IMG/VR virus record: IMGVR_UViG_2671180673_000011
Coordinates: 1 to 37,210 of that record
Length of the DNA: 37,210 bases
DNA from: a virus
Taxonomy: Duplodnaviria > Heunggongvirae > Uroviricota > Caudoviricetes
Reading direction: 5' to 3' (one strand)
The notes below the pieces were generated by a model that worked only from the letters and a program-made list of their open reading frames with translations, did no database searches and had not been told where the DNA came from. This document shows positions 10,712-36,031 of the stretch, piece after piece (the first letter of the stretch is position 1; every line of letters begins with the position of its first letter). The translations under genes and the position numbers were made by a program.

Positions 10712-10738
10712 GATCATCCCCCTGAATAAAAACCGGAG

Positions 10739-16125: not shown

Positions 16126-16171
16126 AGGGTTAGGTTGCACGGACCTTGAATCTATGGCATCAATACGTCCT

Positions 16172-16189
16172 TGTGTGGTAAATGACACA
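16172..16189 (-). promoter_or_regulatory. candidate Ogr-binding late-promoter element (TGT-N12-ACA) upstream of V
   Basis: TGTGTGGTAAATGACACA in the V-upstream intergenic region, between V and the reverse-strand ORF. Confidence 0.3.
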
Positions 16190-16220
16190 AATACAATTCC
16201 AATCAAAGAAAGGTAAAAGA

Positions 16221-16751: not shown

Positions 16752-16756
16752 ACATT

Positions 16757-17209
16757 CTAATTTTTCATCAATAAATACTTTAAAAGTAAATCTCTTACTT
16801 CATTTTCAGTATGTTCATTTAAACCCAGCAATTTTCGGGATGGATACTTAATGACTCCCCCCTTTGGACTGACGCGATCGCGCAGACCGTAGTGATGAAC
16901 ACGGGCAATACGCTGTACCTTACCTTCAAACTGTACGCTGGCAGAATCCGCGCTGGCGGCAGTTCTCAGGTATTTTGTGGTGCGCAGCTTTGCAAACATC
17001 TGACGTTTGATGCGCCCCTTCTTGCTGCGTGCTGTTACCCTGCGCGGCTCATAACTGCTGCCATCTGGATTGCGCTGCATCCTGATATTCTGCTGCTGTG
17101 TCCGGCGCAGTTCCTGCGCCAGCTGGCGCATCATTCGGCTTCTTGCGGCTGGTTCCAGATTCGCCAGCAAAGCACTCAGCCAGTCGTCCACCTTCTGCAG
17201 TTCAGCCAC
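16757..17209 (-). CDS. S: tail completion protein S
   Basis: 150 aa, position and character of P2 gpS. Confidence 0.85.
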   Translation of the reverse strand: MAELQKVDDWLSALLANLEPAARSRMMRQLAQELRRTQQQNIRMQRNPDGSSYEPRRVTARSKKGRIKRQMFAKLRTTKYLRTAASADSASVQFEGKVQRIARVHHYGLRDRVSPKGGVIKYPSRKLLGLNEHTENEVRDLLLKYLLMKN

Positions 17210-17654
17210 GTTTCACCGTCCACATTTCTTCAGGTTCATCGGGTTCCGCTACTGCTTCAACGCTCGACACACTTCCGTCAGTGCTGACCAGCACACGTTC
17301 CGTCAGTTGCAGGTTGAGGCTGATATCACAGACATCGTTGCGCAGAATATCCACCTCAAAGGTGAATAACTTTTCCCGTAACGCCGGATTATTGATGGCA
17401 TCGGGCTGGTTATCACGCAGCCACAGCAAAACCGGGGCCATCAGCAGATTCTGGTCGCCGCTGAAATCCTCAATCACCACGTTGAGGGTATAACGGTACT
17501 CCCATGACATGGAGCTGGCCCCCGTGGCAACCAGCGAACCGTTATCCACAAACAGATGCAGCTTATCCGGGTTATTGCGGACATAAGGCACTGCTTTATT
17601 GAGGGCGTGGCGCAGGGATTGTGGTTTGTTCACTGTTTCGCTCCTGACACGCAA
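17202..17654 (-). CDS. R: tail completion protein R
   Basis: 150 aa; ...FVDNGSLVATGASSMSWEYRYTLNVVIEDFSGD resembles P2 gpR. Confidence 0.85.
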   Translation of the reverse strand: MRVRSETVNKPQSLRHALNKAVPYVRNNPDKLHLFVDNGSLVATGASSMSWEYRYTLNVVIEDFSGDQNLLMAPVLLWLRDNQPDAINNPALREKLFTFEVDILRNDVCDISLNLQLTERVLVSTDGSVSSVEAVAEPDEPEEMWTVKRG

Positions 17655-17886
17655 TAATCATGTCCACTTTGTCTGCACAGACCGCCCAGGCGGCCTCCGT
17701 TTCATCCAGCAATGCGTTCAGATCACCGTTAGTGCGCGGCGCTGCCTGCTCCAGCCGACACGGCGTCACTCGCGGACAACCACTGACGGTAAGCTGCACC
17801 TCCGGTGAGTGCCGGACGTTCCCGCAGCCGGATAATGTCAGCAGGCAAAGGAGTATCAGCCCAGCGGCGTAAATCCTCGTTCTCAC
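17596..17886 (-). CDS. lysC: o-spanin LysC (Rz1-like lipoprotein), embedded and out of frame in lysB
   Basis: Signal peptide with lipobox LTLSGC; overlaps the lysB 3' end and the R start. Confidence 0.7.
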   Translation of the reverse strand: MRTRIYAAGLILLCLLTLSGCGNVRHSPEVQLTVSGCPRVTPCRLEQAAPRTNGDLNALLDETEAAWAVCADKVDMIIACQERNSEQTTIPAPRPQ

Positions 17887-18157
17887 GTTTCAGTTCCTCG
17901 ATCCGGTGTTGTCGTTGTCTCAGCAGCGCGCTGGTCTGTTCTGCTTCGGCATAGAGCCGCGCCTGCTCCCGGTTATTGGTTTCAGCCAGAATGGACAGAC
18001 TGATCAGCTGGCTATTTTTCTTCGTTAGTTCGTGCGCTTTACTTTTCAGCGCCGCGCGCTGCGTTTCGATGGTGTGGCTGGCGCTGTTAAGCCGCCACGA
18101 CTGCCAGCCCAGCGCAACGAGTGCCAGCGCCGCCACTACCGCCAGCGCACGCGTCAT
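17729..18157 (-). CDS. lysB: i-spanin LysB (Rz-like)
   Basis: N-terminal TM helix then coiled-coil-rich periplasmic domain; directly downstream of the endolysin. Confidence 0.8.
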   Translation of the reverse strand: MTRALAVVAALALVALGWQSWRLNSASHTIETQRAALKSKAHELTKKNSQLISLSILAETNNREQARLYAEAEQTSALLRQRQHRIEELKRENEDLRRWADTPLPADIIRLRERPALTGGAAYRQWLSASDAVSAGAGSAAH

Positions 18158-18669
18158 AATCCAGCTCCTTTAAGGCACCAGGCCATCTCCCGCGCACGGC
18201 GGTTATCCAGCCCCTGATTAAACACACCTTTCACATAAACCCAGCGCGGCAACTGTCGGCACGCTTCTGCCCAGCGCCGCTGATTGAGCAATTTCACCAG
18301 CGTAGAACTGCAGGCATTGCCCGTTCCCACGTTGAAGGCAAACGACACCGTAGCGTCATATACCTTCTGCGGCGGCTGTTGCTTCACACACCTTTCCAGC
18401 GCCCGCTCCACACGCAGCACGTTGGAAATAAGCCCTTCTGCTGCCTGTCGTTCCGTGATTGTTTTGCCGGGAATGACGCCCGACGTATTTCCAATGCCGT
18501 CGGTCCAGACACCCGCGCTGCACTGATACGGCTGCAGACGACAACCTTCGTAATCGGCAATCAGTTTCAGCCCCTCCACGGAGGTGTGAAGCTGCTGAAA
18601 CCCCGGCAGCGTGGCAGCAATAGCCAGCACGGCCCCGACAAGGCAGCGTTTAACGATTGATGGATTCAT
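18154..18669 (-). CDS. K: endolysin K (phage lysozyme with N-terminal signal-anchor)
   Basis: 171 aa; hydrophobic N-terminus then lysozyme-like core (...EGCRLQPYQCSAGVWTDGIGNT...). Confidence 0.85.
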   Translation of the reverse strand: MNPSIVKRCLVGAVLAIAATLPGFQQLHTSVEGLKLIADYEGCRLQPYQCSAGVWTDGIGNTSGVIPGKTITERQAAEGLISNVLRVERALERCVKQQPPQKVYDATVSFAFNVGTGNACSSTLVKLLNQRRWAEACRQLPRWVYVKGVFNQGLDNRRAREMAWCLKGAGL

Positions 18670-18865
18670 AGTCCTCCCGCGAAATCTGCCCGTCGCGCAG
18701 AAGCTGGTAGGCTTTGTGTTTGTAGTACCAGTTGATAGCCAGCATCAGCACACCAATCATCAGGCCGCCCAGCGTTGAGGCATCCTTGATGGACAAATCG
18801 CCCAGCCAGGCCAGCACGACGGCGATGCAATACGTGATAAAGGCGCTGATTCGCTCAAGCGTCAT
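18650..18865 (-). CDS. holin (putative)
   Basis: 71-aa protein with two hydrophobic helices and charged C-terminus immediately upstream of the endolysin. Confidence 0.6.
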   Translation of the reverse strand: MTLERISAFITYCIAVVLAWLGDLSIKDASTLGGLMIGVLMLAINWYYKHKAYQLLRDGQISREDYESINR

Positions 18866-18868
18866 AAT

Positions 18869-19072
18869 TCAGTCCCATAGCTGGACGGTCTGCACGGTGG
18901 TGGTGGTCGGAATGTCCGGCAGCTCCACCTGCAGCCCTTGAGGTAAAAAGGGGCCGTATTCGGCAAGCCCCGGATTTGCCTTCAGTACCTGCTCCGTGAC
19001 ACCCTGCGTGCGCCCGTAATGACGCCAGCAAAGCGCGTCCACCGTGTCATACTGATGCGCACGTACTTTCAT
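18869..19072 (-). CDS. X: tail protein X
   Basis: 67 aa; MKVRAHQYDTVDALCWRHYGRTQGV...ANPGLAEYG parallels P2 gpX. Confidence 0.8.
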   Translation of the reverse strand: MKVRAHQYDTVDALCWRHYGRTQGVTEQVLKANPGLAEYGPFLPQGLQVELPDIPTTTTVQTVQLWD

Positions 19073-19536
19073 CAGATAAGCTCCACAGTGCAGTGCGGCG
19101 CATCCTGTACCCGGCTGATGGCCCAGCGGGCGTCACGCCATAAATCACCGCTGGCTTCCGCCAGTTCCTCGCCCCGCTTCACACCGGATGCCGTGGCGTC
19201 ATAGTCCTGGTAACGTTCGTTGAGCATGGCGCGTGCCCAGCAGTAAACCGCGTTGAAATAGTGCTGAATGCGCTCACTTTTCCCATCCAGCTGTTCTGCC
19301 GGAACCTCTGCCAGCGAGGCATATCCCAGCATCTGCTGGCGTCTGCGAAACTCATACAGCTCTGCGTTGACCTCCGAAATTGCCGACAGGGCAACCTGTT
19401 TTAAACGCGGCTGCGTCACCGTGCCGTCAGTGCGCATCACACTGCGAAACTCCGACAGGTCCACATCAGGCCAGAACGGCGTATTTCTGATGATTTCCGC
19501 CTGTTCCGGTGCCTGTTCTGGCGCAACAAACATCAT
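19072..19536 (-). CDS. L: head completion protein L
   Basis: Start placed at ATGATG 19536 with AGGAG 9 nt upstream; track ORF extends 21 codons further. Confidence 0.8.
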   Translation of the reverse strand: MMFVAPEQAPEQAEIIRNTPFWPDVDLSEFRSVMRTDGTVTQPRLKQVALSAISEVNAELYEFRRRQQMLGYASLAEVPAEQLDGKSERIQHYFNAVYCWARAMLNERYQDYDATASGVKRGEELAEASGDLWRDARWAISRVQDAPHCTVELI

Positions 19537-19631
19537 GCGGCTTTCTCCTGAAATAGAGGGCGGTGGACGGGGTTTTGATGTGGCAGTGCCTTTCGCCACC
19601 CCGTGCCGCCCGTGCGCGGGGGCACGTTCTG

Positions 19632-20282
19632 TCAGCGGCTGTCATTGCGCAGTCTGCGCTCCAGCTGCTGTTTGTCTTTTTTCACGCCACAGCGGGGATC
19701 GAGCTGTAACGCATGGTTGAGATGATTAAGGGCGGAAGCCGGGTTGCTTTCACTCAGGACAGCGCCAATCGCTTTATGCAGACGCGCCCGTGACTGGTCC
19801 GGCATATCCAGACCGTCTGTCAGCTCCAGCGTCTGCAGCAACAGATCGGCATCAAAGCCGGTGGCGGCAAGCATTGCGCTCTGCGCCGCGTCTGCCATTT
19901 CCTCTGCCAGCACGGTCTGCACATTGCGATTACCCAGCGGCATCACCCAGCCATGACGCAGGGCATGACGCCCGATCTCCAGCGCCCCGGCATAATCTCC
20001 GGCATCAATGCGCCACAGCATCACGTACATCAGCACGTCATCCTGTTGAGCGCCTCCGGCAGCCAGGACACCCTCTGCCCAGGCGACGTATTTCGGCAGC
20101 AGCTCCACCTTGATTTCCGCTTTTTTGACCGTGGACTGAACGCCCTTGAGACGGCGGCGGTCTTCCGCCAGTTGCAGCAGCATCAGGTCATAGCCCGACG
20201 CGTGGCGAACACTGCCGCCCTCACGGGCGGCCTGTTCAGCCTGAACGCGCAGGCGATGCTGCCGTGCGGGACTCAGGCTCAT
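19632..20282 (-). CDS. M: terminase endonuclease subunit M
   Basis: 216 aa, position between N and L as in P2. Confidence 0.85.
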   Translation of the reverse strand: MSLSPARQHRLRVQAEQAAREGGSVRHASGYDLMLLQLAEDRRRLKGVQSTVKKAEIKVELLPKYVAWAEGVLAAGGAQQDDVLMYVMLWRIDAGDYAGALEIGRHALRHGWVMPLGNRNVQTVLAEEMADAAQSAMLAATGFDADLLLQTLELTDGLDMPDQSRARLHKAIGAVLSESNPASALNHLNHALQLDPRCGVKKDKQQLERRLRNDSR

Positions 20283-20285
20283 GAA

Positions 20286-21344
20286 TTACGCTCCGGCTTC
20301 TGCTGCAGCGGCGCTGAAATCGCCAATCTGGATGTTTTCCACCAGTGCGGCGCAGCGGTAGTCCTCAACCACATAGGCTTCGTTAACGGATTCAAAGTTT
20401 TCAATCCGGTCACGTTTCGGGTTGTCGATAACTGAACGGCGGCGGGTGTCTTCCTGCCAGTAGATGGACAGGTTATCCAGACGGGTGATCAGCAGCGCAT
20501 TCGGCGGGAAGAACGGCGCACGCACGGCCTGCAGGCCCCCCATGCGTTTCTGACTGATGATCATATCGGCAGCCAGTTTTTCACTGTTTTCCTGCTCTTT
20601 GTTGACCAGCGGGAAATACTTGTCAGACAACAGTTCACGACCGCAAATCACCACCAGATCGTCATCGTCCTGGTAAACCACGTCGATAAGCTCATTGACC
20701 GCATCCATCACCACAGCGTCCAGGTTGGCATATTCGCCACCTTTCCCGACTTTCACCGCACCCGGTGTGGTTTCACCGCCCGTGGTGGTACTGCCCATGA
20801 CGTGATCCGGTGCATCCTCACGGATTTTCTGCAGCCAGCCTTTGTTCACATCCTGCAGCAGCGGGTTTTCGCTACGGTTGGAGGTTTTCGCACGCTTCAC
20901 GCCGTTAAAGCCGATCATGATGCGGTCCAGTGCCTGACGTTTCACGATGGCGTTACGGATACGCACCTGGAAATCCTGAAACTTCGCCCACAGGTCCAGC
21001 TTCGCGTAGGTCAGCACCGTGTCAAAGTTGGTCTGCTCGCATTTATATTCCACATCGACCATCAGCGTCGGATCGACAGGCTCACGCTCTTTTGCGGTGG
21101 TATCAGTGGTTCCGGCAATGGTGCTGCCAACCCCCAGCCCCAGCAACTGCCCAGACTGCTCAGTCACTGGCGTGACGTTAATCAGCGTCAGGAAAGCGGC
21201 GGACTGCTGGATCTGGTCTTCCAGCGTCTGCTGTACAGACGGCTCCACGGTGAACTTGCTGGACAGTTCTTCAACTGCCACACCGTTCAGACGCGCCAGC
21301 TGCTGCAGGTAAGCGTTAAAAGCAAAGCGGGTATTCTTCTTCAT
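20286..21344 (-). CDS. N: major capsid protein N
   Basis: 352 aa; length and position of P2 gpN. Confidence 0.9.
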   Translation of the reverse strand: MKKNTRFAFNAYLQQLARLNGVAVEELSSKFTVEPSVQQTLEDQIQQSAAFLTLINVTPVTEQSGQLLGLGVGSTIAGTTDTTAKEREPVDPTLMVDVEYKCEQTNFDTVLTYAKLDLWAKFQDFQVRIRNAIVKRQALDRIMIGFNGVKRAKTSNRSENPLLQDVNKGWLQKIREDAPDHVMGSTTTGGETTPGAVKVGKGGEYANLDAVVMDAVNELIDVVYQDDDDLVVICGRELLSDKYFPLVNKEQENSEKLAADMIISQKRMGGLQAVRAPFFPPNALLITRLDNLSIYWQEDTRRRSVIDNPKRDRIENFESVNEAYVVEDYRCAALVENIQIGDFSAAAAEAGA

Positions 21345-22336: not shown

Positions 22337-24103
22337 ATGAACACCACACTGACACCCGCAGATCTCGATCCCCGTCGGCAGGCCATGCTGCTGTACTTTC
22401 AGGGATACCGCGTAGCCCGCATTGCTGAAATGCTGGGCGAGAAAGTTGCAACCGTTCACAGCTGGAAAAAACGCGACAAGTGGGGTGACTATGGGCCGCT
22501 GGATCAGATGCAGCTCACCACCGCCGCACGCTACTGCCAGCTCATTATGAAGGAGCACAAAGAAGGGAAAGATTTCAAAGAGATTGACCTGCTGGCGCGC
22601 CAGTCGGAGCGCCATGCGCGGATCGGCAAGTTTAACAATGGCGGCAACGAAGCCGACTTAAACCCTAACGTCGCCAACCGCAACAAAGGCCCGCGCCGTC
22701 AGCCGGAAAAGAACGTTTTCACCGATGAACAGATTGAGAAGCTGGAAGAAATCTTCCATTCCTCCATGTTCAACTACCAGCGCCACTGGTGGGAAGCCGG
22801 AAAAACCAACCGCATCCGCAACCTGCTGAAGTCACGCCAGATCGGCGCGACCTTTTACTTTGCCCGTGAAGCCCTGATTGACGCCCTGCTTACCGGACGT
22901 AACCAGATTTTCCTTTCTGCCAGTAAGGCACAGGCTCACGTCTTTAAGCAGTACATCATAGACTTCGCCAAAGAAGTCGAGGTGGAGCTGAAAGGCGATC
23001 CGATGGTGCTTCCTAACGGAGCCACGCTTTACTTCCTCGGCACCAATGCCCGCACGGCCCAGAGTTATCACGGCAACCTGTATCTGGATGAATATTTCTG
23101 GATACCGAAATTCCAGGAGCTGCGCAAAGTGGCTTCCGGTATGGCTATTCACAAAAAATGGCGACAGACCTATTTTTCCACGCCATCCAGTCTGACACAC
23201 AGTGCTTATCCGTTCTGGTCCGGTGCGCTGTTCAACCGTGGGCGCAACAAAGCCGACAAGGTGGACATCGACCTGTCCCACAGCAATCTGGCCCCCGGCC
23301 TGCTGTGCGCAGACGGGCAATACCGCCAGATAGTCACCGTGGAAGATGCGGTGCGCGGCGGCTGTAACCTGTTCGACCTCGACCAGCTACGCATGGAGTA
23401 CAGCCCGGACGAATACCAGAACCTGCTGATGTGCGAGTTTGTGGACGATCTCGCGTCCGTGTTTCCGCTCAGCGAGCTGCAGGCGTGCATGGTGGACAGT
23501 TGGGAAGTCTGGACCGACTTTCATGCACTGGCCCTGCGCCCGTTTGGCTGGCGCGAAGTGTGGATCGGTTATGATCCGGCAAAAGGTACGCAGAACGGCG
23601 ACAGTGCCGGATGCGTGGTGGTGGCACCGCCAGCCGTGCCGGGTGGTAAGTTCCGCATTCTTGAGCGTCACCAGTGGCGCGGGATGGACTTCCGCGCCCA
23701 GGCTGACGCCATCAAAAAACTGACCGAGCAGTACAACGTGACCTACATCGGCATCGACTCGACAGGTGTCGGCCACGGGGTTTACGAGAACGTGAAAGCG
23801 TTTTTTCCAGCCGTCCGGGAGTTTGTCTACAACCCCAACGTTAAAAACGCCCTGGTACTCAAGGCCTACGACATTATCAGTCACCGTCGTCTGGAGTTTG
23901 ACGCCGGACACACCGACATAGCGCAGTCATTTATGGCAATCCGTCGCGCCACCACCGCCAGCGGCAACCGCCCAACCTATGAAGCCAGCCGCAGCGAAGA
24001 AGCCAGCCATGCCGATCTGGCCTGGGCAACAATGCACGCACTGTTTAACGAACCGCTGCAGGGCGAATCCGCCAATACCAGCAATATTGTGGAGATTTTT
24101 TGA
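22337..24103 (+). CDS. P: terminase ATPase (large) subunit P
   Basis: 588 aa, divergent from O as in P2. Confidence 0.9.
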   Translation: MNTTLTPADLDPRRQAMLLYFQGYRVARIAEMLGEKVATVHSWKKRDKWGDYGPLDQMQLTTAARYCQLIMKEHKEGKDFKEIDLLARQSERHARIGKFNNGGNEADLNPNVANRNKGPRRQPEKNVFTDEQIEKLEEIFHSSMFNYQRHWWEAGKTNRIRNLLKSRQIGATFYFAREALIDALLTGRNQIFLSASKAQAHVFKQYIIDFAKEVEVELKGDPMVLPNGATLYFLGTNARTAQSYHGNLYLDEYFWIPKFQELRKVASGMAIHKKWRQTYFSTPSSLTHSAYPFWSGALFNRGRNKADKVDIDLSHSNLAPGLLCADGQYRQIVTVEDAVRGGCNLFDLDQLRMEYSPDEYQNLLMCEFVDDLASVFPLSELQACMVDSWEVWTDFHALALRPFGWREVWIGYDPAKGTQNGDSAGCVVVAPPAVPGGKFRILERHQWRGMDFRAQADAIKKLTEQYNVTYIGIDSTGVGHGVYENVKAFFPAVREFVYNPNVKNALVLKAYDIISHRRLEFDAGHTDIAQSFMAIRRATTASGNRPTYEASRSEEASHADLAWATMHALFNEPLQGESANTSNIVEIF

Positions 24104-25140
24104 TGGGAAAGAGTAAGAAGAACCGAGCTGCGGCGACGAAACAGATCCAGCTTAAAAGTCAAACTACAGCCGAAGCATTCAGCTTCGGCGATCCCGTTCC
24201 TGTTCTGGACCGCCGTGAACTGCTGGACTATGTGGAATGCGTACAGATGGACCGTTGGTATGAGCCGCCCGTCAGCTTTGACGGACTGGCGCGCACCTTC
24301 CGCGCCGCCGTGCATCACAGTTCCCCGATTGCAGTAAAGTGCAACATTCTGACCAGTACCTATATCCCTCATCCGCTGCTCAGCCAGCAGGCTTTTTCGC
24401 GTTTTGTGCAGGACTATCTGGTATTTGGTAACGCCTACCTGGAGAAACGCACGAACCGATTCGGTGAAGTTATCGCCCTTGAGCCTGCCCTGGCAAAATA
24501 CACCCGACGTGGATTAGACCTGGATACCTACTGGTTTGTGCAATACGGCATAACAACGCAACCGTATCAGTTCACGAAAGGCAGCATTTTTCACCTGATG
24601 GAACCGGATATCAACCAGGAGATCTACGGCCTGCCCGGTTATCTTTCTGCCATTCCGTCAGCCCTGCTCAACGAGTCCGCCACGCTGTTCCGTCGAAAGT
24701 ATTACATTAACGGCAGTCATGCAGGCTTCATCATGTACATGACCGACGCCGCGCAGAACCAGGAGGATGTAAACAACCTCCGTAACGCGATGAAAAGCGC
24801 CAAAGGACCAGGTAACTTCCGCAATCTGTTTATGTACTCGCCTAACGGCAAAAAGGACGGACTTCAGATCATCCCATTGTCAGAAGTCGCGGCGAAGGAT
24901 GAGTTTCTGAATATCAAAAATGTCAGCCGCGATGACATGATGGCAGCGCACCGTGTGCCACCGCAAATGATGGGGATTATGCCGAATAATGTTGGGGGGT
25001 TTGGGGATGTGGAGAAGGCAAGCCGTGTATTCGTCCGAAATGAGCTAATGCCACTACAAAAGCGATTACAGGAGATGAATGATTGGCTTGGCAAGGAGGC
25101 GATACAGTTTGATACCTACTCGCTAGATATAGCCCCATAA
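24100..25140 (+). CDS. Q: portal protein Q
   Basis: 346 aa, overlaps the P stop by 4 nt; length of P2 gpQ. Confidence 0.9.
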   Translation: MMGKSKKNRAAATKQIQLKSQTTAEAFSFGDPVPVLDRRELLDYVECVQMDRWYEPPVSFDGLARTFRAAVHHSSPIAVKCNILTSTYIPHPLLSQQAFSRFVQDYLVFGNAYLEKRTNRFGEVIALEPALAKYTRRGLDLDTYWFVQYGITTQPYQFTKGSIFHLMEPDINQEIYGLPGYLSAIPSALLNESATLFRRKYYINGSHAGFIMYMTDAAQNQEDVNNLRNAMKSAKGPGNFRNLFMYSPNGKKDGLQIIPLSEVAAKDEFLNIKNVSRDDMMAAHRVPPQMMGIMPNNVGGFGDVEKASRVFVRNELMPLQKRLQEMNDWLGKEAIQFDTYSLDIAP

Positions 25141-25144
25141 TAAG

Positions 25145-25168
25145 AAAAGCCACCGTTTGGTGGCTTTT
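25145..25168. terminator. bidirectional rho-independent terminator
   Basis: AAAA-GCCACC-GTTT-GGTGGC-TTTT between the convergent Q and the HipS/HIRAN gene. Confidence 0.5.
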
Positions 25169-25174
25169 CTTCAT

Positions 25175-25915
25175 TTACTCAATAGGTTCAAACTCATCTT
25201 GAGGAATCAGCGTCGATTGACAGGCTTGGCTTAGTACCCCTGATAATTTACATAATAACCGATAGTTATGAGGAGCATCATCGCTAATCTTTTCGACCGT
25301 TAAAGTGATTGATTTTGGATCATCCAATAACATCTTCTTGATGTCATTACTTAAATACCTAGGGCAGTAACCAACGATTTCAGCTGGTTTATCTGCACGA
25401 ACGACAACAGCATCCCCATCGTATTCATTTTGAAGATCCAAGCAAAGACGCAAAATTTGCCCCGGTTTCAATTCAGATACACGAGCATTAGCTAAGCTAT
25501 TCAAGTAACCAAGTCCATGTAAGAAGAAAAAATGCTCAAAGTTACCATCAGAATCAAAATCAATTTTTTTGAAAATCTGCAGCTGATCAGTGCTTCGTAA
25601 GCCTCCCGAGCGAGCAAGAATATCGATAGGATTTACCTTATCTTCTTCAAATCCAAGCCATTTAATGAAACTCGGATACTCTGGACGTCTCGGTGATAAA
25701 AGGCGATTTTTAAAAAGAGGAAACAATTCTTCCGATACATAAGTTTCACGAACATCACTCATGCCGCTAAACTTTGTAAATTTAGAAGATTTAAGAGCAC
25801 CTTTGGTATACCTGAAAACATACCCCGATTTGCGCTCTTGCAAGTTACCAACAACATGCCAGTCTCTGGTATCTGGTGCCTGCCATGCGACGTAAACGGA
25901 GTTTGTATTAGTCAT
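25175..25915 (-). CDS. HipS-like / HIRAN-domain fusion protein (putative partner of the HipA-like kinase)
   Basis: N-terminal LFPLFKNRLLSP and DILARSGGL resemble HipA N-subdomain-1 (FFDNLLPDSP...); C-terminal LRLCLDLQNEYDGDAVVVRADKPAEIVGYCPRYL fits the HIRAN signature; ATGA overlap with the upstream kinase gene. Confidence 0.6.
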   Translation of the reverse strand: MTNTNSVYVAWQAPDTRDWHVVGNLQERKSGYVFRYTKGALKSSKFTKFSGMSDVRETYVSEELFPLFKNRLLSPRRPEYPSFIKWLGFEEDKVNPIDILARSGGLRSTDQLQIFKKIDFDSDGNFEHFFFLHGLGYLNSLANARVSELKPGQILRLCLDLQNEYDGDAVVVRADKPAEIVGYCPRYLSNDIKKMLLDDPKSITLTVEKISDDAPHNYRLLCKLSGVLSQACQSTLIPQDEFEPIE

Positions 25916-26826
25916 TCTAGTAACCTTCTGCGATTTTCCATTACCATTAACGTTGCAAATCTACGTGCACTGTCGGATATACACGATGAAGGCACTTGGT
26001 TAAACACATCTGTAATGGAATCTTCTGTTAAAACGCTCAACTTACCTAACCAATGGTCGCGAGCGGCAACTCTCCCTTCAACTGCATGTTGAAATGCTTC
26101 AACAGTCAGCAAGGGCTTTTTATCAGTTTTTGCTTTGAATAGCTCAGAGCGAGCTTTTCTTACAAAACATGGGATTTGTCGATTTTTATCTTTAGTATTA
26201 AGCCGTTCGTTACGCTCATCATCTAACATCTCCCTTCCTAAACTAGCGGCATGATCGTATGTTGGACACAAAAACTGCTCACCAGTTTCATTGTTAAGCA
26301 TGATTGCCCAATTTTCATGGTGGCGATCTTGATTACTCACAAGTGCATCGAGCATCAAATATCCACAAAATACATCTGCTGCATTTAGCCCGGTTAGATC
26401 ATATACACTCGGAGGAGGCTTGATAGATTCCCTATCTAAACAACCCAAGACCCTTGTGACAGTGTGTTCTCTGACCCTTACCGGCTTTTCCCCGGCTTGT
26501 AAAGGCCCAGGATAATCGAATGTCGAACTGTGAAGCACTTCATTTCCCATTACCATCCGGAAACCAGATGGAATGATATTCTGAGTCACCACACCGAATC
26601 GACCATTGTATCGCGCCAAATCATAGCTAGCATGTGGAATGTTAAGCAAATGACATAACTCAGCAGCACACTTTTCAGACCAATGCTCGCCAGTACCTGG
26701 CCTAGAGTACTTAAACAACTGCAAATTTACAGTGTCATCGGAGAAATAGAACCAAAACTTCTCTTTGGTTCCTAACTGTTCAAGATCGTTAGCTACGGGG
26801 CTAAGCTCTACCAATTGGTATGGCAT
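25912..26826 (-). CDS. HipA-like (HipT-type core) protein kinase
   Basis: 304 aa; GTKEKFWF (cf. HipA Gly-rich loop VAGAQEK), catalytic loop SNQDRHHENWAIM (cf. HipA GATDGHAKNF), CPTYD (cf. HipA TPFYD); no HipA N-subdomain-1. Confidence 0.7.
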   Translation of the reverse strand: MPYQLVELSPVANDLEQLGTKEKFWFYFSDDTVNLQLFKYSRPGTGEHWSEKCAAELCHLLNIPHASYDLARYNGRFGVVTQNIIPSGFRMVMGNEVLHSSTFDYPGPLQAGEKPVRVREHTVTRVLGCLDRESIKPPPSVYDLTGLNAADVFCGYLMLDALVSNQDRHHENWAIMLNNETGEQFLCPTYDHAASLGREMLDDERNERLNTKDKNRQIPCFVRKARSELFKAKTDKKPLLTVEAFQHAVEGRVAARDHWLGKLSVLTEDSITDVFNQVPSSCISDSARRFATLMVMENRRRLLE

Positions 26827-26978
26827 CTGACATCCCTGTTTAGCGGATTATGAATAAGTTAGGTTCCATTTTATCCAAACATTGTCAAATACCCTAAGAT
26901 TTATTAGATGATAGAGCGATACTGTATGTATGTCCAGCAATCAAATCAATATATAACTCTTATATGGCTTAACGCGCG

Positions 26979-26997
26979 CTCGTATCCCCGCCACGCC
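26979..26997 (-). other. candidate cohesive-end (cos) site
   Basis: Minus strand reads GGCGTGGCGGGGATACGAG; first 13 nt equal the 186 cos as I recall it (GGCGTGGCGGGGAAAGCAT). Confidence 0.4.
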
Positions 26998-27042
26998 TGC
27001 CCGCTTTATGTAGTGGTTTTCATGCACCTGCATGATCTACGC

Positions 27043-27066
27043 AAAAGCCCGCCAGTTCTGGCGGGC
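27043..27066 (-). terminator. rho-independent terminator after the DinI/Tum-like operon
   Basis: GCCCGCC/GGCGGGC stem with a T-run on the minus strand. Confidence 0.45.
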
Positions 27067-27201
27067 CTTAGCAAAAACGATCCTCAAACGATCATGCGAT
27101 CTCATGCGGCATAGACATGCACTACAGAGCTAACGCCTCGCAAGGGCTCGTTGTTCAACCTTGCTGACGCCAGAAGCAAGTTCAGACGCCAGCAACGTTT
27201 C

Positions 27202-27435
27202 TTAATGCAGCCAGCTGTCGTCTTCCCACACCTTCTGCATAATTTTCATCACTTGTTTTCTTTCTTCGTCCAGTTGCAATCCGGTAAGTTCCACACCGTT
27301 AGAGCTACCTTTGCGGATACGAATTACCGTTTTGGGATACAGAGGGCGCAGATTGCGGTAAAGCTCGGATTCAAGAGCGTCCAGGGTAGACTGGCTAATC
27401 TTCTGCTCTTTATCGATCATTATTTCAATGCGCAT
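27202..27435 (-). CDS. DinI-family protein (C-terminal part of a 186 Tum-like antirepressor)
   Basis: MRIEIMIDKEQ...DALESEL...WEDDSWLH aligns along its length with E. coli DinI; GAGGTGA Shine-Dalgarno 5 nt before ATG 27435. Confidence 0.8.
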   Translation of the reverse strand: MRIEIMIDKEQKISQSTLDALESELYRNLRPLYPKTVIRIRKGSSNGVELTGLQLDEERKQVMKIMQKVWEDDSWLH

Positions 27436-27445
27436 AAAAGTCACC

Positions 27446-27634
27446 TCAGCTGATGACATCCATTGAGCGGTTGTATTCGTGGGTTCTGATTTTTGCCATG
27501 AGTTCATCAGTCAATTCAGAAACCCACTGCAGAGCCAGCCCCTTCTCTTCATCACTACACTCACTAGCCGCTACAAGCTTAAGAAAAAAATCAATGCGCT
27601 GGAGCTTCAAAGACTCCAAAAAATAGTCCTGCAT
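27446..27634 (-). CDS. small SOS-regulated protein, possibly the N-terminal part of a split Tum-like antirepressor
   Basis: 62 aa from ATG 27634 with AGGAGG Shine-Dalgarno; LexA box about 45 bp upstream; the 3' end overlaps the DinI-frame ORF in another frame. Confidence 0.5.
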   Translation of the reverse strand: MQDYFLESLKLQRIDFFLKLVAASECSDEEKGLALQWVSELTDELMAKIRTHEYNRSMDVIS

Positions 27635-27787: not shown

Positions 27788-30160
27788 TTAATACAGGTTC
27801 CGCCACTGATCATCTTCCTGCAAACGCTGGTTCCGATAGAAGATACGCAGGCCTGCTCCTGACGGAATACTGCCTCCGCGAAGGAGTAAATCGACCTCTT
27901 TCTCGCTGCCATCAAATCCTCTGGACTTCAGCTCATACACGAGCTGCAGTCGCTGATGGTCTGTAATTCGCTGTTTGTAGTCTTTACGCCGTTTCGGTTT
28001 CACCAGGCGTAACCTTGCTGCCAGTTCCCGGCGCTCTTTTTTGCTCATACTGTGCAGGTAATCGTGCAACTCCTTGTCATCCATGCTGGTAATGTCCGTT
28101 CTGGGGTTCCCATCAGCTGATTTATCTTTCTCCTGTTGGTTCAAATTTTCAGCAAGGGGACAGTTATTGCCACGAGTCCAAGGGGCGCAAGCGCCCTGGT
28201 CGGCTGCCGCCTCCTGAACGTCAACGGCCTTACGAACCATTTTCCACTTCACTGCATGAGTGCAGATCTTGCCCTCTGCAATGGGTGACCAGATGCCATA
28301 AATACGAATACCGTGATCGCCATAGGCGGTTGGCTCTTCGTTGATTTCATAAGCGGTTCTGATGAGGTGATATTTGCGGGGAACCAGTACGCCGCCCTGC
28401 TTCATGATGTAGGTGGCAAAACAACCAGCATCAGCAGCAGCCAGGATGGCATCAAGGCGCGGGTTATCCAGTACCGGCGCACCTGCTTTTTTGTCACCCT
28501 GTTGCCTTGCCGCCTGACCAGCCAGCAATCGCAGTTCACGGTAAGCCTGACGCCCCGGAATGCCAAAGAAGCGGAATTGCTGAACACGATGCAGAGACGC
28601 CCAGGCATTAACGTATTCAGCGTTATCACGCAGGGATTTACCCGTTTCCTTACTGATCTCGCCAGCCAAACCACGCCCGTCAATATTCTTACTGATATAT
28701 TTCGCAATGTAGCTTGTCGGCGTTCCTTTGCGCGGGTTTATCAGCTCAGACTTAAAGCGTGGCCCCGTGTTATTGCCCAGCTCCTCGCGGTCTTCACGGA
28801 TGGCAAACTTACGCAACAATGCAGTAATGGCGCGGCGGTCTTTTTTGCGCATGAAACACAACAGGTGCCAGTGAACTGTGCCGTCATGATGCGGCTCAGC
28901 CACCCGCACGCCATACCAGCGCAACCCGGCTTTGTGCATAGCCTTACGAAATGCAGCAAACATGCCGACCAGATAATCGCTGCTTTGTCTTACTGTCGCG
29001 TTGGTCCAGGTCGGGTTTGGCCTGCCGTTATTTAGCGTGGAATGGAAACGTGACGGACAGGTGATGGTGTAGAAAACGGCGCAGTCACCACGCATTTCCG
29101 CGATAAGCTCCAGGCCTTTAACACAGGCCATCATCTCATTGCGGCGATGCGCCGGGTTGCTGCTGCTGGCGTTTACCACATCCTCCATGTCCAGCGTGTC
29201 GCCGTCTTCGTTCACCAGTTCATGAGAACGGAAAAACTCCAGCGACTTACGGCGCTGCTCACGTTTATGCATCACGGCTTCATAGCTGACATAAGGAGAT
29301 GCTTTTTTGCTGACCAGGCAGACAGCGCGCAACTGCTCTTCCCGCCATTCGCAACGCATCTTCCATAATTTCCGGTACCACCAGTCGGCGCACAACATAC
29401 GCGCCAGCGAACCCGGAATGAGTTCATAGGGCACGGGTTTACGGCGGTTTCTTTTCCGACGGAGTTGCTCAAACGCAGGCGGGATAACATCCAGACGCAG
29501 GGTTTCCGCTGCCACCTTTTCCCATGTCTTGCGGATTTCTTCTGGCTTAACGTCATCGGTGGCATACAAATCACCACAAGCTGCATCAAGGCACATGCTC
29601 ATATGCGCAGCGACAAGGGTAGACAGGCGCTTCACCTGATCCTGACTCATTTCAGGCAGGATAAGCAGGCCATCCAGCCCTTCATGGCTTGCCATAAAGC
29701 GAAAAGAAGCGGATAGCTGACTGTCGCGTACATGCTCCAGTCGTTCCAGACATGGCTTAATCGTCTCACGCAAATAGCGGGAATAAGCCTTTGGCCTGCC
29801 CAGGCTGCTGAAGTATTCAATACGTTGCATCAGCGGCTTGCTGATATGGGAAGGCTGGGCATTGACGTCCGCCAGAATGACCATATCTGGATTAAAACGC
29901 TGCTGCTCATGCGCCAGCTTTGCCCGACTAATGAGCTTATCCTGCTCCATTTCGCGCTGGACAGGATCACGGGATTCATTAAAGAAATAACGCTCCCAGA
30001 CCTGATCACTCAGTACCTCGCGGCGCAGGTGTTCCTGTTCGTTATCGGCAGCGTACAGAGCGATCAGGTTTGAAAGCGCAGAAACTGAAGATTGCTCTTC
30101 TGTCCCTACGTAAGGATTGATTGCTTTTTTCTCAGCATTCCAGGAATAGCTGTAGTTCAT
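27788..30160 (-). CDS. A: replication initiation endonuclease A
   Basis: Large ORF of P2 gpA type; start placed at ATG 30160 (MNYSYSWN) with GGAG upstream, overlapping the upstream stop as TAATG. Confidence 0.85.
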
Positions 30161-30990
30161 TACGCAATCTCCAGTTCGAGCTGTGATGGCTGCAAACCAT
30201 TCGACAGCCAATCAGAAACTGAAGGTGGGCGAACAGCTTCAATTGCACCTTTTAAAATTGCGCAACGGTTTTTCAGAATGACAGCTTTCAGCTCCTTTTC
30301 CGTCAGATTGCGCGAATACTCAGCCTCCTGAATAGCCCGCGTAAGCTCAGGATATTTGCTATTAAATTTGGGGACATTGCAGGCAAGATTTGTACTGTCG
30401 GCAGTCGCCAGTGGGTAATTTCCCAACACACGACCGTCAAGCATGCGCAAACCATGAACAGCTGTTTTGAAATTGTGTCGGCAATAAATTGCTTCAAAAG
30501 CGTCCTGCATACGACGATGCCAGTGCGCAGTTCTGATAGCCGCATATTCACCAGACGATCCAAAGCAGACACGAGGCCATTCACGACATAGCTCGATAAG
30601 CCGATCGATTGACTCGTGCAGATGCCAGACGGGAGTTGCCTTCCCGTAGAACATTTTCGGAACTTCGTTTATCAGGGCATCATTGCCACGTTCACCGCCG
30701 TCCACAACATCAGGAATGACAAAAAAAGCGACCTTAGGATGGTGGTAATAGTTCAGGAGCCATTTATAAAAATCACTCCAGTTAATTTTTAGCCCACGCA
30801 CCCATGCAGAAAATGCGCCGTTATCAATGCCGACGACCTGAGCGTGCTGAATGGACGCCGCAATCTGATCTGGTCGTACATAGGAGACGAAAGCGCCAGC
30901 TCCGCTCACCGCAATACGATGAACGTCGCCAGCACTTCCCCAGACAGGCGTCCCATGGAAATGATGAATTCCGTGGTGCATTTCTTTCAC
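30160..30990 (-). CDS. hypothetical protein coupled to Dam; possible TGT/DpdA-like fold (speculative)
   Basis: 276 aa, GTG start overlapping the Dam stop; HG-TPV and GIDNGAFS loosely recall tRNA-guanine transglycosylase motifs, but no Zn-binding Cys cluster. Confidence 0.5.
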
Positions 30991-33737: not shown

Positions 33738-34334
33738 ATGTCAACATCAAAGTACCCAAATGAGATCAAAATAAATCCCAATAAAGGTGGTAAGGCTGCG
33801 ATTGAGCGATTAGTCGAAGCTTATGGCTTTACGACACGACAGGCTTTAGCTGATCACTTGGAAGTATCAAAAAGCACTCTGGCGAACAGGTATTTGCGGG
33901 ATACGTTTCCTGCAGACTGGATAATCCAATGTGCTCTTGAAACAGGAACCTCACTGAAATGGTTAACCACCGGGCAAGGCCTTAAGCAAAGCTCGCTGAC
34001 AGCAGCTACAGAAGAGCTTGCCAAGTTTCGCCTTACCGCAGGCAAAATGATTGAAGATGGTTCATATGTCTTCGATTCATCATTTCTTCCTGCAAATCTT
34101 TCATCACCAATTGTTATTCAGGATGGGCTCGTCACATACATTTGTGATCAAAAATTTTCTGAAGTACTTGATGGGCACTGGTTAATCAACATCGACGGAA
34201 CCTATTCCATTCGAAAAATCACAAAGCTTCCAAAAGGTATGATTAAAATTACAAGTACAGAGAATAGCTTTGAATGTGCATTTTCTGATATTGAAGTAGT
34301 TGCTTGTATAAGAAGTACAATAGTTTCAAATTAA
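33738..34334 (+). CDS. cI: CI immunity repressor (186 type)
   Basis: 198 aa with N-terminal HTH (FTTRQALADHLEVSKSTLANRY) and C-terminal domain, upstream of int. Confidence 0.8.
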   Translation: MSTSKYPNEIKINPNKGGKAAIERLVEAYGFTTRQALADHLEVSKSTLANRYLRDTFPADWIIQCALETGTSLKWLTTGQGLKQSSLTAATEELAKFRLTAGKMIEDGSYVFDSSFLPANLSSPIVIQDGLVTYICDQKFSEVLDGHWLINIDGTYSIRKITKLPKGMIKITSTENSFECAFSDIEVVACIRSTIVSN

Positions 34335-34354: not shown

Positions 34355-36031
34355 ATGAATTCATTTTCCATCGTTATATTCTTATTAGCATTTCTCGCCC
34401 CCATTCTAGCTGTAATATTATTTAAGCAAAGCAAAAAACATAAAGCGGCTATAAATACCTTGACAGCTAACAACATAGCCCTTTCCAACCAACTGAAAGA
34501 AAATCAAGAAGAATTAGCACAGACTGTACGAGATCTATCAGAGCTTGAAGGACGAGCTGCGCCATTATGGCAATACGCAGAATTGCACAGCGCAGTGATG
34601 GAAGCAGAGAATAAGATAAAAAATGCAGACTCAATAGCCAGGCAAAAAATAGAAGAAGCCCAAATAAAGGCTGCTAAGACAGTAAACGAAGCAAATTATC
34701 AAGCTCAGATAAAAATAAGCAACGCTAATAGCGAAGCTATAGCAATTACTAAAGACGCTCGCGATGCACGCCTGAAAGCTAAAGAACGTCTTGATAATGC
34801 CAATAGTAAAGCAAATGAGCTGATCTCAAATGCTAATGACAATGCAGTGAAAATTATTTCCGATGCAGAAGAAAGAGCAAAAGAGATTGCTGGTTCAGCA
34901 TATGAAGCTAAAGAGTTTGCAGAAAAATATGAAGCAGTTGCCAAATCAATGAAAAATAAAATTGAAGGTTATGGTGATGAATGGATCATCCCTAACCGTA
35001 GCGTTCTCGATGAATTGGCAGAAAATTATGAGTTTACAGATGCAGGTAAGGAATTACAAAAAGCCAGGGAGTTAACAAAATCATTAATAAAAACTAATAA
35101 AGCTGCTTCGTGTGATTATGTTGAACAAAACAGGCGTAATACTGCTATCAACTTTGTTTTAGATGCCTTCAATGGAAGAGTTGACAGTATTTTATCAAAA
35201 GTCAAACACCACAATTTTGGAAAACTTTCCCAAGAGATAAAAGATGCGTTTCAACTTGTAAATTACAATGGTTCTGCCTTTAGGTCCGCAAAAATAAGTG
35301 ACATCTATCTTCAAGCTCGACTCAACGAGCTAAAATGGGGAGTTGCAGTTAATGAAATTATGCTCGAAGAAAAAGAAGAGCAAAGAAGGATTAAAGAACA
35401 ACTTCGTGAAGAGGAAAGAGCTCGTAGGGAGTATGAAAAAGCGATAAAAGAAGCTGAAAAAGAAGAGAAAGCTATTCAGCAAGCTATAAATAAAGCAACA
35501 AAAGAGCTTATGCTTGCAAATGAAGAACAACGCTTAGCTTTAGAGCAAAAAATAGCTGAACTACAGTTAAAATATGAAGAAGCTGAAGCTAAAAACCAAC
35601 GAGCTATTTCTATGGCTCAACAAACTAGATCAGGCCACGTTTATATAATTAGTAATATTGGCTCATTTGGCGAAGATGTATATAAAATTGGAATGACACG
35701 CCGCCTTGAACCACTTGATCGTGTTCGTGAACTCGGTGATGCTAGTGTTCCTTTTTCGTTCGATGTTCATGCGATGATTTATAGTGATGATGCACCATCA
35801 TTAGAAAATCATCTGCATAAAGTCTTCAACGAAAAACAGGTCAATAAAATTAACTCACGAAAAGAGTTTTTCAACGTAAATATTAAAGAAATTAAGTCTG
35901 TTATTGAAGATATGAACATCAACGCACAATGGACAATGTTTGCGGAAGCGAAAGAATATAGAGAGTCACTGGCGATTGAGCAAGAGCGCAAAGCAGCAAC
36001 TTCCGCCAACGATGAACTGCATGTTGCTTAG
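34355..36031 (+). CDS. membrane-anchored coiled-coil protein with C-terminal T5orf172/MUG113-like (GIY-YIG-like) domain
   Basis: 558 aa; N-terminal TM helix (IVIFLLAFLAPILAVILF), about 350 aa of K/E/A-rich coiled coil, then GHVYIISNIGSFGEDVYKIGMTRRLEPLDRVREL...LHKVF...EFFNV; strongly AT-rich; AAAGGA Shine-Dalgarno. Confidence 0.7.
   Translation: MNSFSIVIFLLAFLAPILAVILFKQSKKHKAAINTLTANNIALSNQLKENQEELAQTVRDLSELEGRAAPLWQYAELHSAVMEAENKIKNADSIARQKIEEAQIKAAKTVNEANYQAQIKISNANSEAIAITKDARDARLKAKERLDNANSKANELISNANDNAVKIISDAEERAKEIAGSAYEAKEFAEKYEAVAKSMKNKIEGYGDEWIIPNRSVLDELAENYEFTDAGKELQKARELTKSLIKTNKAASCDYVEQNRRNTAINFVLDAFNGRVDSILSKVKHHNFGKLSQEIKDAFQLVNYNGSAFRSAKISDIYLQARLNELKWGVAVNEIMLEEKEEQRRIKEQLREEERARREYEKAIKEAEKEEKAIQQAINKATKELMLANEEQRLALEQKIAELQLKYEEAEAKNQRAISMAQQTRSGHVYIISNIGSFGEDVYKIGMTRRLEPLDRVRELGDASVPFSFDVHAMIYSDDAPSLENHLHKVFNEKQVNKINSRKEFFNVNIKEIKSVIEDMNINAQWTMFAEAKEYRESLAIEQERKAATSANDELHVA

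Follow-up and report, generated by a model that had tools for sequence, protein, structure and literature searches.

A hipIN-type kinase–HIRAN gene pair as probable accessory cargo of a P2-like prophage

The window analysed here, the whole stretch of 37,210 nucleotides of a Caudoviricetes virus (IMG/VR record IMGVR_UViG_2671180673_000011), contains a two-gene cassette that by its identity and architecture is very probably a hipIN-type pair (PADLOC PDC-M03), carried as accessory cargo by a P2-like prophage. A hipIN-type defence function of this cassette is a plausible hypothesis. The locus is already known: its family, architecture, hotspot position and proposed mechanism are all published. The organisation was named hipIN and predicted to form a toxin-antitoxin (TA) family by Gerdes, Baerentsen and Brodersen (2021, mBio, PMC8262856), whose survey the original prediction had described correctly; it covers only 14 hipIN modules, and prophages are not mentioned. 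As a discovery, the locus adds little, the exact proteins being already in a published table. The analysis adds that the predicted structure confirms the HipS-like domain, that the solved structure nearest to the kinase is that of CtkA, that the two genes are paired almost without exception in different phyla, that Vinavirales phages are among the carriers, and that the cassette has a portal-side position relative to cos. The features of the locus are listed below.

25142..25171, no strand assigned: 13-bp perfect hairpin with A/T runs on its flanks, between the convergent portal and hipN stops
25175..25915, minus strand: hipN-type partner gene, ORF of 246 aa
25232..25537, minus strand: predicted HIRAN domain at partner residues 127-228
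25556..25915, minus strand: predicted HipS-like domain of the partner, residues 1-120 approximately, equivalent of HipA N-subdomain-1
25912..26826, minus strand: hipI-type kinase gene, ORF of 304 aa
26908..26936, minus strand: promoter-like site TGGACA-17 nt-TATCAT, 10/12 in a consensus scan
26984..27025 (about), no strand assigned: cos-like packaging sequence, boundary of the cassette on the gpA side, from local alignment to P2 cos

Both ORFs and their overlap have exactly the coordinates originally given. At 25912-25915 the plus strand has tcat and the minus strand ATGA, in which the kinase stop and the partner start overlap. At E <= 1e-3, 955 and 535 protein clusters (90% identity) match the kinase and the partner, respectively, and the best matches are 99% identical (E 3.5e-204 and 8.7e-162); therefore both are real genes and not chance ORFs. 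The GC content over 25001-27000 is 0.40-0.42 versus 0.51-0.59 in the flanking structural genes, in agreement with the lower GC given in the original prediction; this low GC is in favour of the reading as hipIN-type cargo.

The portal gene ends at 25140, and its stop is convergent with that of hipN. The hairpin between them (dG -20.4 and -21.0 kcal/mol on the two strands, z -6.6 and -6.8, none of 200 shuffles equally stable) is likely to be a bidirectional terminator, judging by its sequence. It was absent from the list produced by a consensus terminator scan. The promoter-like site is located between cos and the cassette, approximately 80 nt upstream of the kinase ATG. Such sites are no commoner in this region than by chance, and thus it is the position alone that supports this candidate. 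No convincing operator-like inverted repeats were found near it. Between cos and the hairpin there are just the two genes and no HTH ORF.

The first gene is predicted to encode a short Ser/Thr kinase core of the HipA/CtkA fold, with HipA N-subdomain-1 absent and the active site intact. The Gly-rich loop occupies residues 19-26 (G19-T-K-E-K-F-W-F26); the catalytic-loop stretch is S164-N-Q-D-R-H-H-E-N-W-A174 with the core D167-R-H-H-E-N172; the Mg-binding D191 lies within Y190-D-H-A-A-S195. All three motifs are invariant in 22 relatives at 57-90% identity, as are the partner motifs L64-F-P-L-F68, N70-R71 and L73-S74; the motifs quoted originally are thus both present and conserved. In 32 wider relatives (34-56% identity), the residues K23, K39, E51, D167, R168, H169, N172 and D191 are invariant. 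The Glu of DRHHEN, to which attention had been drawn as a departure from HipA, is invariant in close relatives; however, its conservation falls below 90% across the wider family, and thus it is not a family hallmark.

The PADLOC model PDC-M03A matches residues 2-304 of 304 of the kinase (E 2.1e-122). The Pfam model HipA_C (PF07804) gives the window kinase 20.7 bits against a gathering score of 30.5 (E 3.6e-4), and is matched by 21 of the 22 close and 31 of the 32 wider relatives (best E 5.7e-12). No NCBIfam model matches either protein. Searches of PDB chains with the single sequences and the close-family profiles recovered neither HipA nor HipT for the kinase, CtkA being the only match (E 0.43 and 8.4e-4), nor HipS for the partner; these relationships emerged only when folds were compared and a wider profile was used. 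In Foldseek, the AF2 model of the kinase (pLDDT 81, pTM 0.85) matches CtkA (E 5.5e-10, TM 0.60-0.69), HipA (E 3e-6, TMq 0.54) and HipT of L. pneumophila (E 6e-4 to 1e-3). The wider family profile, compared with PDB, matches CtkA over residues 49-302 with E 1.7e-16, and HipT with E 0.008.

The nearest solved relative of the kinase is H. pylori CtkA (JHP0940, PDB 3AKJ/3AKK/3AKL), rather than HipT or HipA. CtkA is also its closest characterised relative by sequence, and has the same DRHxxNW catalytic loop. The original assignment to the HipA-family kinases agrees with the fold and the conserved catalytic residues, but the likeness to HipT is a distant one. Its gene belongs to a T4SS plasticity zone, and a different role has been described for its product, that of a kinase which is secreted and promotes inflammation. 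A hidden HipS/HIRAN partner of ctkA was sought downstream of the H. pylori gene, and none was found there.

The second gene, according to its model, provides in trans the N-terminal domain of HipA (HipS-like), fused to a HIRAN domain. PDC-M03B matches residues 1-244 of 246 (E 6.8e-93), and the AF2 model is confident (pLDDT 86, pTM 0.82). The C-terminus has both a profile match to HIRAN (PF08797) above threshold and the HIRAN fold, as had been proposed. The predicted fold of the N-terminal domain matches HipS; its Pfam score is below the gathering cutoff. Thus, among the domains originally named, HIRAN passes its Pfam threshold, whereas HipA_C and the HipS-like domain do not; the fold matches to CtkA, HipA, HipT, HipS and HIRAN agree with all of them. 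HLTF HIRAN binds DNA 3' ends and not specific internal operator sequences. In hhalign, partner residues Q162, N163, Y165, D166 and R186 are opposite HLTF N90, N91, Y93, D94 and K113, in an alignment that is weak when taken alone (probability 22%, E 9.5e-4). Q162, N163, D166 and R186 are invariant among relatives, which have Y, F or H at position 165. Hence this HIRAN domain appears from the alignment to keep the residues with which HLTF holds the DNA 3' end.

The family comprises 2324 clusters (50% identity) at E <= 1e-3, far more than the survey of Gerdes et al. covered. The partner is directly downstream of the kinase in 132 of 134 uncut related loci, with a median gap of 3 nt. The pair was found in Gammaproteobacteria, Cyanobacteria, Acidobacteria, Deltaproteobacteria and Planctomycetota, and its two genes are inherited together in different phyla and on unrelated mobile elements. 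In another E. coli setting the cassette adjoins AlpA/DUF3987/primase genes; in V. cholerae the two genes are inserted on their own; in PM2-like Vinavirales phages of Vibrio it adjoins an integrase; and it is also carried by Nostoc and actinobacterial plasmids. Megablast against cultured-phage genomes gave no match, and a protein search yielded just four records, all of them Vibrio Vinavirales.

The window cassette lies between gpQ (portal) and gpA, in the interval where the P2-like prophages L002 and L003 hold other genes. The exact P2 and 186 cohesive-end 19-mers were absent with up to three mismatches allowed, and therefore cos was located by local alignment. The candidate agrees at 35 of 42 aligned positions with the P2 cos region within the pFR108 insert of Rousset et al., and confirms the position between portal and cos. 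In all P2-type loci this sequence precedes the kinase start by 125-210 nt. The old and tin genes of reference P2 are on the gpA side of cos. The cassette, originally placed where P2 carries cargo such as old and tin, is indeed variable cargo of this hotspot (it is present in 21 of 5426 E. coli genomes, and the adjacent portal gene in 1260), but it is on the portal side, whereas pFR108 and pFR106 have their cargo on the gpA side of cos. By tblastn the window proteins are 100% identical to genes annotated as WP_001146828 and WP_000185756 in locus L001, and both accessions are listed as P2 hotspot cargo in Table S5 of Rousset et al. 2022 (PMC9122126). The other cargo (old, tin, DprA-PRTase, DUF4238, 3HP) shares the gpA-gpQ interval and the variable, low-GC moron character, but its proteins are unrelated to those of the cassette. 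DprA-PRTase was likewise proposed to combine a DNA-binding sensor with an effector (PMC9122126).

In comparison with known systems, no difference in architecture from hipIN was observed: hipIN kinases have 279-321 aa, lack N-subdomain-1 and carry the Gly-rich loop near the N-terminus, as the window kinase of 304 aa does, and the downstream gene is HipS-like plus HIRAN. The taxa of the proteobacterial/cyanobacterial HipI subclade of Gerdes et al. match those found for the window's family. Equally, both proteins match the PDC-M03 models over their full length, with no difference; PDC-M03 is described as HipA and HIRAN proteins in a genome annotation (PMC13245101). The split-HipA logic is common to the cassette, HipBST of E. 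coli O127 and HipT/HipS of L. pneumophila. However, HipBST consists of hipB (HTH), hipS and hipT, whereas the cassette has two genes only, no HipB or other HTH ORF, the kinase first and HipS fused to HIRAN, and the kinase is related to HipT distantly (profile E 0.008, Foldseek E about 6e-4); membership in HipBST was therefore rejected. The HipL-type "Exonuclease + HipA" system of pFR108, which comes from the same P2 hotspot and was cloned by Rousset et al. (PMC9122126), has the same domain set: its kinase aligns with the window kinase at the catalytic loop (37% identity over 51 aa, E 9e-9), and its HipS-like stretch aligns weakly with the partner (E 0.03). It differs in having the kinase and the HipS-like part in one fused protein, paired with a DEDD exonuclease. 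The domain set is also that of the actinobacterial diDNase-HipA-HIRAN clusters (PMC11706625). In HLTF/Rad5, HIRAN is attached to an SNF2 helicase/ubiquitin ligase, and in the window the predicted HIRAN is on a putative kinase regulator.

The best explanation, to which we assign a probability of about 0.5, is that this is a hipIN accessory cassette with a role against phages, for which the proposed mechanism is DNA-end sensing by HIRAN that gates the kinase and leads to abortive infection. Whether the cassette has an anti-phage or TA role at all is, by analogy, close to an even bet, and the specific HIRAN-sensor mechanism is less likely than not. Upon infection by another phage, HIRAN would bind free DNA 3' ends, such as those of injected linear genomes or of replication or degradation intermediates. 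Binding would release or activate the kinase, which would then phosphorylate a protein essential to the host; the likeliest target is an aminoacyl-tRNA synthetase, as it is for HipA (GltX) and HipT (TrpS). The ensuing stop of translation would abort the infection, and the lysogen population, hence the prophage, would be protected. The mechanism is drawn from the analogy with HipBST and follows the 2021 proposal of Gerdes et al. Thus the defence model offered in the original prediction as its own had already been published, with HIRAN sensing phage DNA ends and the kinase triggering abortive infection (PMC8262856). Defence candidacy or the same model has been proposed repeatedly (PMC8262856; PMC11706625; PMC9122126, Tables S5 and S6; PMC13245101).

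A literature search on the hipIN/PDC-M03 family found no experimental report of kinase activity, toxicity, neutralisation, DNA-end binding or phage protection; a single paper naming PDC-M03 was found, with annotation only, and PDC-M03 is a candidate for which this search found no validation. In the experiments of Rousset et al., three of eight additional P2 systems were active in tests with eight phages, none of them matching pFR108 (PMC9122126). By elimination, the fused relative in pFR108 appears to have given no protection against these eight phages.

If the hypothesis is true, a eukaryote-type DNA-end reader, HIRAN, joined to a persistence-type kinase would be a new immune sensing logic, and the Hip kinases would be extended from antibiotic tolerance to phage defence. 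It is possible, though rather doubtful, that hipIN is a working DNA-end-triggered, kinase-based abortive-infection system common to tailed P2-like and non-tailed PM2-like temperate phages. Located beside cos, hipIN might in addition single out the recessed 3' ends that incoming genomes of cos phages or satellites carry. For testing, the P2 version from E. coli is convenient, as it is 1.65 kb long and has its own promoter-like site and candidate terminator, and large phage panels exist for its host. P2 has rolling-circle replication and cohesive ends, and therefore a DNA-end sensor in a P2 prophage would have to avoid self-triggering, a point against the sensor model.

An addiction-type TA system, with HipI as toxin and HipN as antitoxin stabilising the prophage or mobile element by post-segregational killing, is an unlikely alternative. 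HIRAN would then be the DNA-binding part of the antitoxin, for instance replacing the HTH of HipB in autoregulation, and not a sensor of infection. Neutralisation of HipI by HipN is a prediction of Gerdes et al., who class hipIN as a TA module (PMC8262856). The split-HipA architecture parallels HipT/HipS, the cassette rides on many kinds of mobile elements, and, since it has no HTH gene, another DNA-binding autoregulator is conceivable. However, HIRAN as known from HLTF binds 3' ends, and it is the end-binding residues that are conserved; no convincing operator-like inverted repeat was found at the promoter-like site; and a bare chromosomal insertion has nothing to stabilise. The location also favours defence, as the P2 hotspots are rich in validated defence genes (PMC9122126).

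About as improbable is a defence or signalling system with an output other than translation arrest through an aminoacyl-tRNA synthetase, in which the kinase would target phage proteins, DNA-metabolism proteins or HipN, or the system would respond to damaged or stalled forks. The staphylococcal Stk2 system is a model of kinase defence with other targets. Since CtkA resembles the kinase more than HipA or HipT do, substrate specificity is not transferable to it from HipA. The link of DEDD (di)nucleases with the actinobacterial and HipL-type relatives is a hint of a DNA-centred pathway, but no DEDD exonuclease was found near any of the 138 loci of the window's subfamily. Eukaryotic HIRAN acts at replication forks, according to papers cited in PMC8262856; on the other hand, all experimentally characterised Hip kinases in Table 1 of the same survey target tRNA synthetases.

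A P2 life-cycle module that senses cohesive-end, packaging or replication intermediates of P2 or of P4-type satellites, and regulates superinfection or satellite parasitism in place of general defence, would account for the position always 125-210 nt from cos in P2-type loci, and Rousset et al. showed that systems of the hotspot can be active against other phages of the P2-like group (PMC9122126). However, proximity to cos goes with the hotspot and extends to unrelated cargo, and most members of the family are outside P2-like or cos phages, in cyanobacteria, Vinavirales, plasmids and bare insertions, which makes this reading very improbable. Finally, decaying cargo with a pseudo-kinase remnant, suggested by Pfam scores that fall below threshold in two of the three domains, is effectively refuted by the full-length ORFs, the confident fold predictions, the catalytic residues invariant down to 34% identity and the conservation of the pair across phyla.

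The cassette is confirmed as two real minus-strand open reading frames. The ORF list contains both at the positions claimed for them in the original prediction, and the cassette and its neighbours are arranged as follows.

22337-24103, plus strand: terminase ATPase gene, converging on the cassette
24100-25140, plus strand: portal gene, converging on the cassette
25142-25171: 13-bp perfect hairpin between the portal and hipN stop codons
25175-25915, minus strand: hipN, the partner (246 aa)
25912-26826, minus strand: hipI, the kinase (304 aa)
26936-26908, minus strand: promoter-like site between cos and the kinase start
~26984-27025: cos-like sequence (35/42 identities aligned with the P2 cos region)
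27044-27069: second strong hairpin, 3' of the DinI-like gene
27202-27507, minus strand: DinI-like gene on the far side of the cassette, followed by a small ORF
27788-30211, minus strand: gpA replication endonuclease gene, beyond the DinI-like gene and the small ORF

The expected ATGA overlap is present: the plus strand reads tcat at 25912-25915, joining the kinase TGA with the partner ATG on the coding strand. Purine-rich stretches, read by eye as possible ribosome-binding sites, precede both start codons. The GC content is 0.40-0.42 across 25001-27000 and 0.51-0.59 in the adjoining late genes, a drop that had also been noted. Its flanking signals give the cassette the appearance of an independent transcription unit.

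The gene order is that of a P2-like prophage, and the layout agrees with that of the annotated prophage of E. coli CFSAN061772 (99.9% identity over the query). Since the cassette is bounded by the portal-side hairpin and the cos-like sequence, its assignment to the interval between portal and cos is correct. In the reference P2 map old and tin are on the gpA side of cos. Cargo seems to occupy both sides of cos in this hotspot: in the window (25141-27200) and in two other P2-like prophages, L002 (7076-9200) and L003 (7076-9630), it is flanked by the portal gene and cos. Rousset et al. count the entire gpA-gpQ interval as a single hotspot, and in their clones pFR106 and pFR108 cargo comes after cos when read from the gpQ end (PMC9122126). 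Unlike the window, L002 and L003, these inserts have cos immediately after the portal terminator and cargo on the gpA side. The gpA-side cargo differs among loci whose kinase is 100% identical to that of the window.

The window kinase matches Pfam HipA_C below threshold (20.7 bits against a cutoff of 30.5, E 3.6e-4, residues 154-225), and the same profile matches 21 of 22 close and 31 of 32 wider relatives (best E 5.7e-12). For the AF2 model, which is confident (pLDDT 81, pTM 0.85) except at the disordered residues 96-120, the best Foldseek match is Helicobacter pylori CtkA (E 5.5e-10, TM 0.60-0.69) and the second E. coli HipA (E 3e-6); CotH, Legionella HipT and PI3K-type kinases follow. A profile of the wider relatives (34-56% identity) finds CtkA nearly over its full length (E 1.7e-16) and HipT(Lp) at E 0.008. 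K23, K39, E51, D167, R168, H169, N172 and D191 are invariant in this wider set. The CtkA and HipA matches, together with invariant D167, N172 and D191, bear out the proposed HipA-family kinase core; judged by sequence, the catalytic site is intact, and these kinases are active-site-competent and under selection. All motifs quoted in the original prediction were found and are invariant in 22 relatives (57-90% identity). The emphasis on the Glu of DRHHEN holds for these close relatives, but in the wider set this residue is less than 90% conserved, as is T20 of the Gly-rich loop. At E <= 1e-3 the kinase matches 955 and the partner 535 protein clusters at 90% identity; among 50%-identity clusters the kinase has 2324 matches at the same cutoff and 461 at E <= 1e-30.

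Of the relatives of this family with a solved structure, CtkA is the nearest; the literature describes it as a pro-inflammatory kinase that is secreted. No HipS or HIRAN gene was found 3' of H. pylori ctkA (L149 3950-6100). In gut-metagenome relatives of CtkA (L150-L153 3778-4867, ~55% identity) a 77-aa gene overlaps the kinase start, a layout resembling toxin-antitoxin (TA) loci.

The N-terminal domain of the partner matches Pfam Couple_hipA weakly (E 0.014); 14 of 22 relatives match it too. In an hhalign alignment with the HIRAN sequence of HLTF, itself verified in PDB, Q162, N163, Y165, D166 and R186 pair with N90, N91, Y93, D94 and K113, the residues of the HLTF 3'-end pocket; the alignment is weak alone (probability 22%). 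Q162, N163, D166 and R186 are invariant in 22 relatives (57-90% identity); the DNA-end pocket is conserved. The predicted architecture, a kinase and a HipS-like-HIRAN partner, is correct.

The cassette was sought in 138 loci with a kinase relative (80 genome loci, 57 viral contigs, and L001, the CFSAN061772 locus). The partner lies 3' of the kinase on the same strand in 132 of the 134 loci uncut by a contig end (median gap 3 nt); the other two show the HipS-like part only. The two genes are an obligate pair and mobile accessory cargo. Hosts include Gammaproteobacteria, Cyanobacteria, Acidobacteria, Deltaproteobacteria, Tepidisphaeraceae and one Clostridia MAG; Nostoc and actinobacterial plasmids also bear the cassette. 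It occurs in 21 of 5426 complete E. coli genomes, every copy at least 99% identical, compared with 1260 for the adjacent portal gene, and L002 and L003 have unrelated genes in the same place, as expected of variable prophage cargo. The distance to gpA varies among P2-flanked loci because other cargo occupies the far side of cos, in agreement with Table S5 rows joining the pair to DarT/Macro, Mrr_cat or ASCH genes (PMC9122126).

Outside P2, a second E. coli variant of the cassette (L141-L145 8001-9663, 71% identity, at least 49 contigs) adjoins AlpA/DUF3987/AEP-primase genes on one side and a two-partner-secretion/CDI locus on the other, in an integrative element different from P2. In V. cholerae the cassette is a bare two-gene insert amid housekeeping genes, and in temperate PM2-like phages (Vinavirales, 14.6 kb) that infect Vibrio cyclitrophicus it is beside the integrase. 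In one of them, Vibrio phage 10N.222.46.E12_PE001, the kinase/HIRAN pair (37% identity) spans 11590-13304. Occurring in P2-like and Vinavirales phages, the module is thus common to tailed and non-tailed phages.

The cassette has all the testable defining features of PADLOC PDC-M03 and of hipIN as described by Gerdes (2021, PMC8262856). It was rejected as a HipBST system for lack of HipB and for its reversed gene order. A tblastn comparison gave 100% identity between the window proteins and the CFSAN061772 genes annotated WP_001146828 and WP_000185756, both listed among P2 hotspot arrangements in Table S5 of Rousset et al.; their Table S6 calls a Vibrio homologue "HIRAN-kinase" (PMC9122126). 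The hipIN-type prediction was restated without experiments in later papers (PMC11706625, PMC13245101). Given these features and the exact proteins in Table S5, the cassette is already known as a published, unvalidated candidate. It would not surprise a specialist, yet is a compact, well-defined handle on a five-year-old hypothesis.

The function originally proposed, a defence kinase with a HIRAN sensor, is plausible. HipS neutralises HipT in HipBST, and the HIRAN domain of HLTF binds 3' ends. [quoted passage not shown] The released kinase would phosphorylate an essential protein; HipA and HipT act on tRNA synthetases, and one of these would be the likeliest target here too. Translation arrest would then abort infection. 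The same model was published by Gerdes et al. (PMC8262856). We rate the chance of an anti-phage or TA function as about even; that 3'-end binding by HIRAN is the specific sensor step is less likely than not.

One alternative is a TA module of the addiction type, in which HIRAN would be the DNA-binding part. P2 replicates by rolling circle, and a DNA-end sensor in a P2 prophage would have to escape self-triggering, a point against the sensor model. So is the status of pFR108, a fused kinase relative with a DEDD exonuclease, which is outside the three active extra P2 systems (PMC9122126), a negative by inference only and for eight phages only. Unlike in pFR108, a DEDD exonuclease is near the cassette in 0/138 loci. 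Literature searches found no experiments on the hipIN/PDC-M03 family, which also counts against the favoured model. Another possibility is that the kinase acts on a different target: it is closer to CtkA, so HipA substrate specificity is not transferable. A third and much less likely possibility is a P2-specific role linked to cos. Among the 138 loci only the enterobacterial copies are flanked by P2 genes, and in each of these cos precedes the kinase start by 125-210 nt.

Further features of the window and of L001 were observed.

10145-10717, minus strand: serine resolvase/invertase gene (Resolvase E 2.3e-53, and HTH_7)
10739-11113, plus strand: tail-fibre C-terminal fragment adjoining it
11113-11556: tail-fibre assembly gene, facing, like the fragment, minus-strand tail-fibre genes
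16182-16751, plus strand: 189-aa orphan ORF antisense to the late operon, at the P2 orf30 position
33738-34334: CI-like repressor ORF, one flank of the 558-aa gene
34355-36031, plus strand: 558-aa gene with DUF4041 and T5orf172/MUG113 domains (PADLOC PD-Lambda-1, E 1.4e-119)
from 36115: integrase, the other flank

The 189-aa ORF lies in a GC trough (0.36-0.40) and has no match in Pfam or PADLOC. The 558-aa gene lies in a second low-GC island (0.35-0.39); PD-Lambda-1 is an experimentally validated type, and by this match the prophage holds a second defence gene. In L001 the ogr-to-portal-to-HIRAN segment occurs twice in tandem (10550-20816 and 31829-41851), each copy with a truncated tape-measure pseudogene and most tail genes missing; an assembly artefact or a rearranged tandem prophage would account for this. 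The region 10145-11556 of the window, at the P2 Z/fun position, resembles an invertible host-range segment of the Gin/Cin type.
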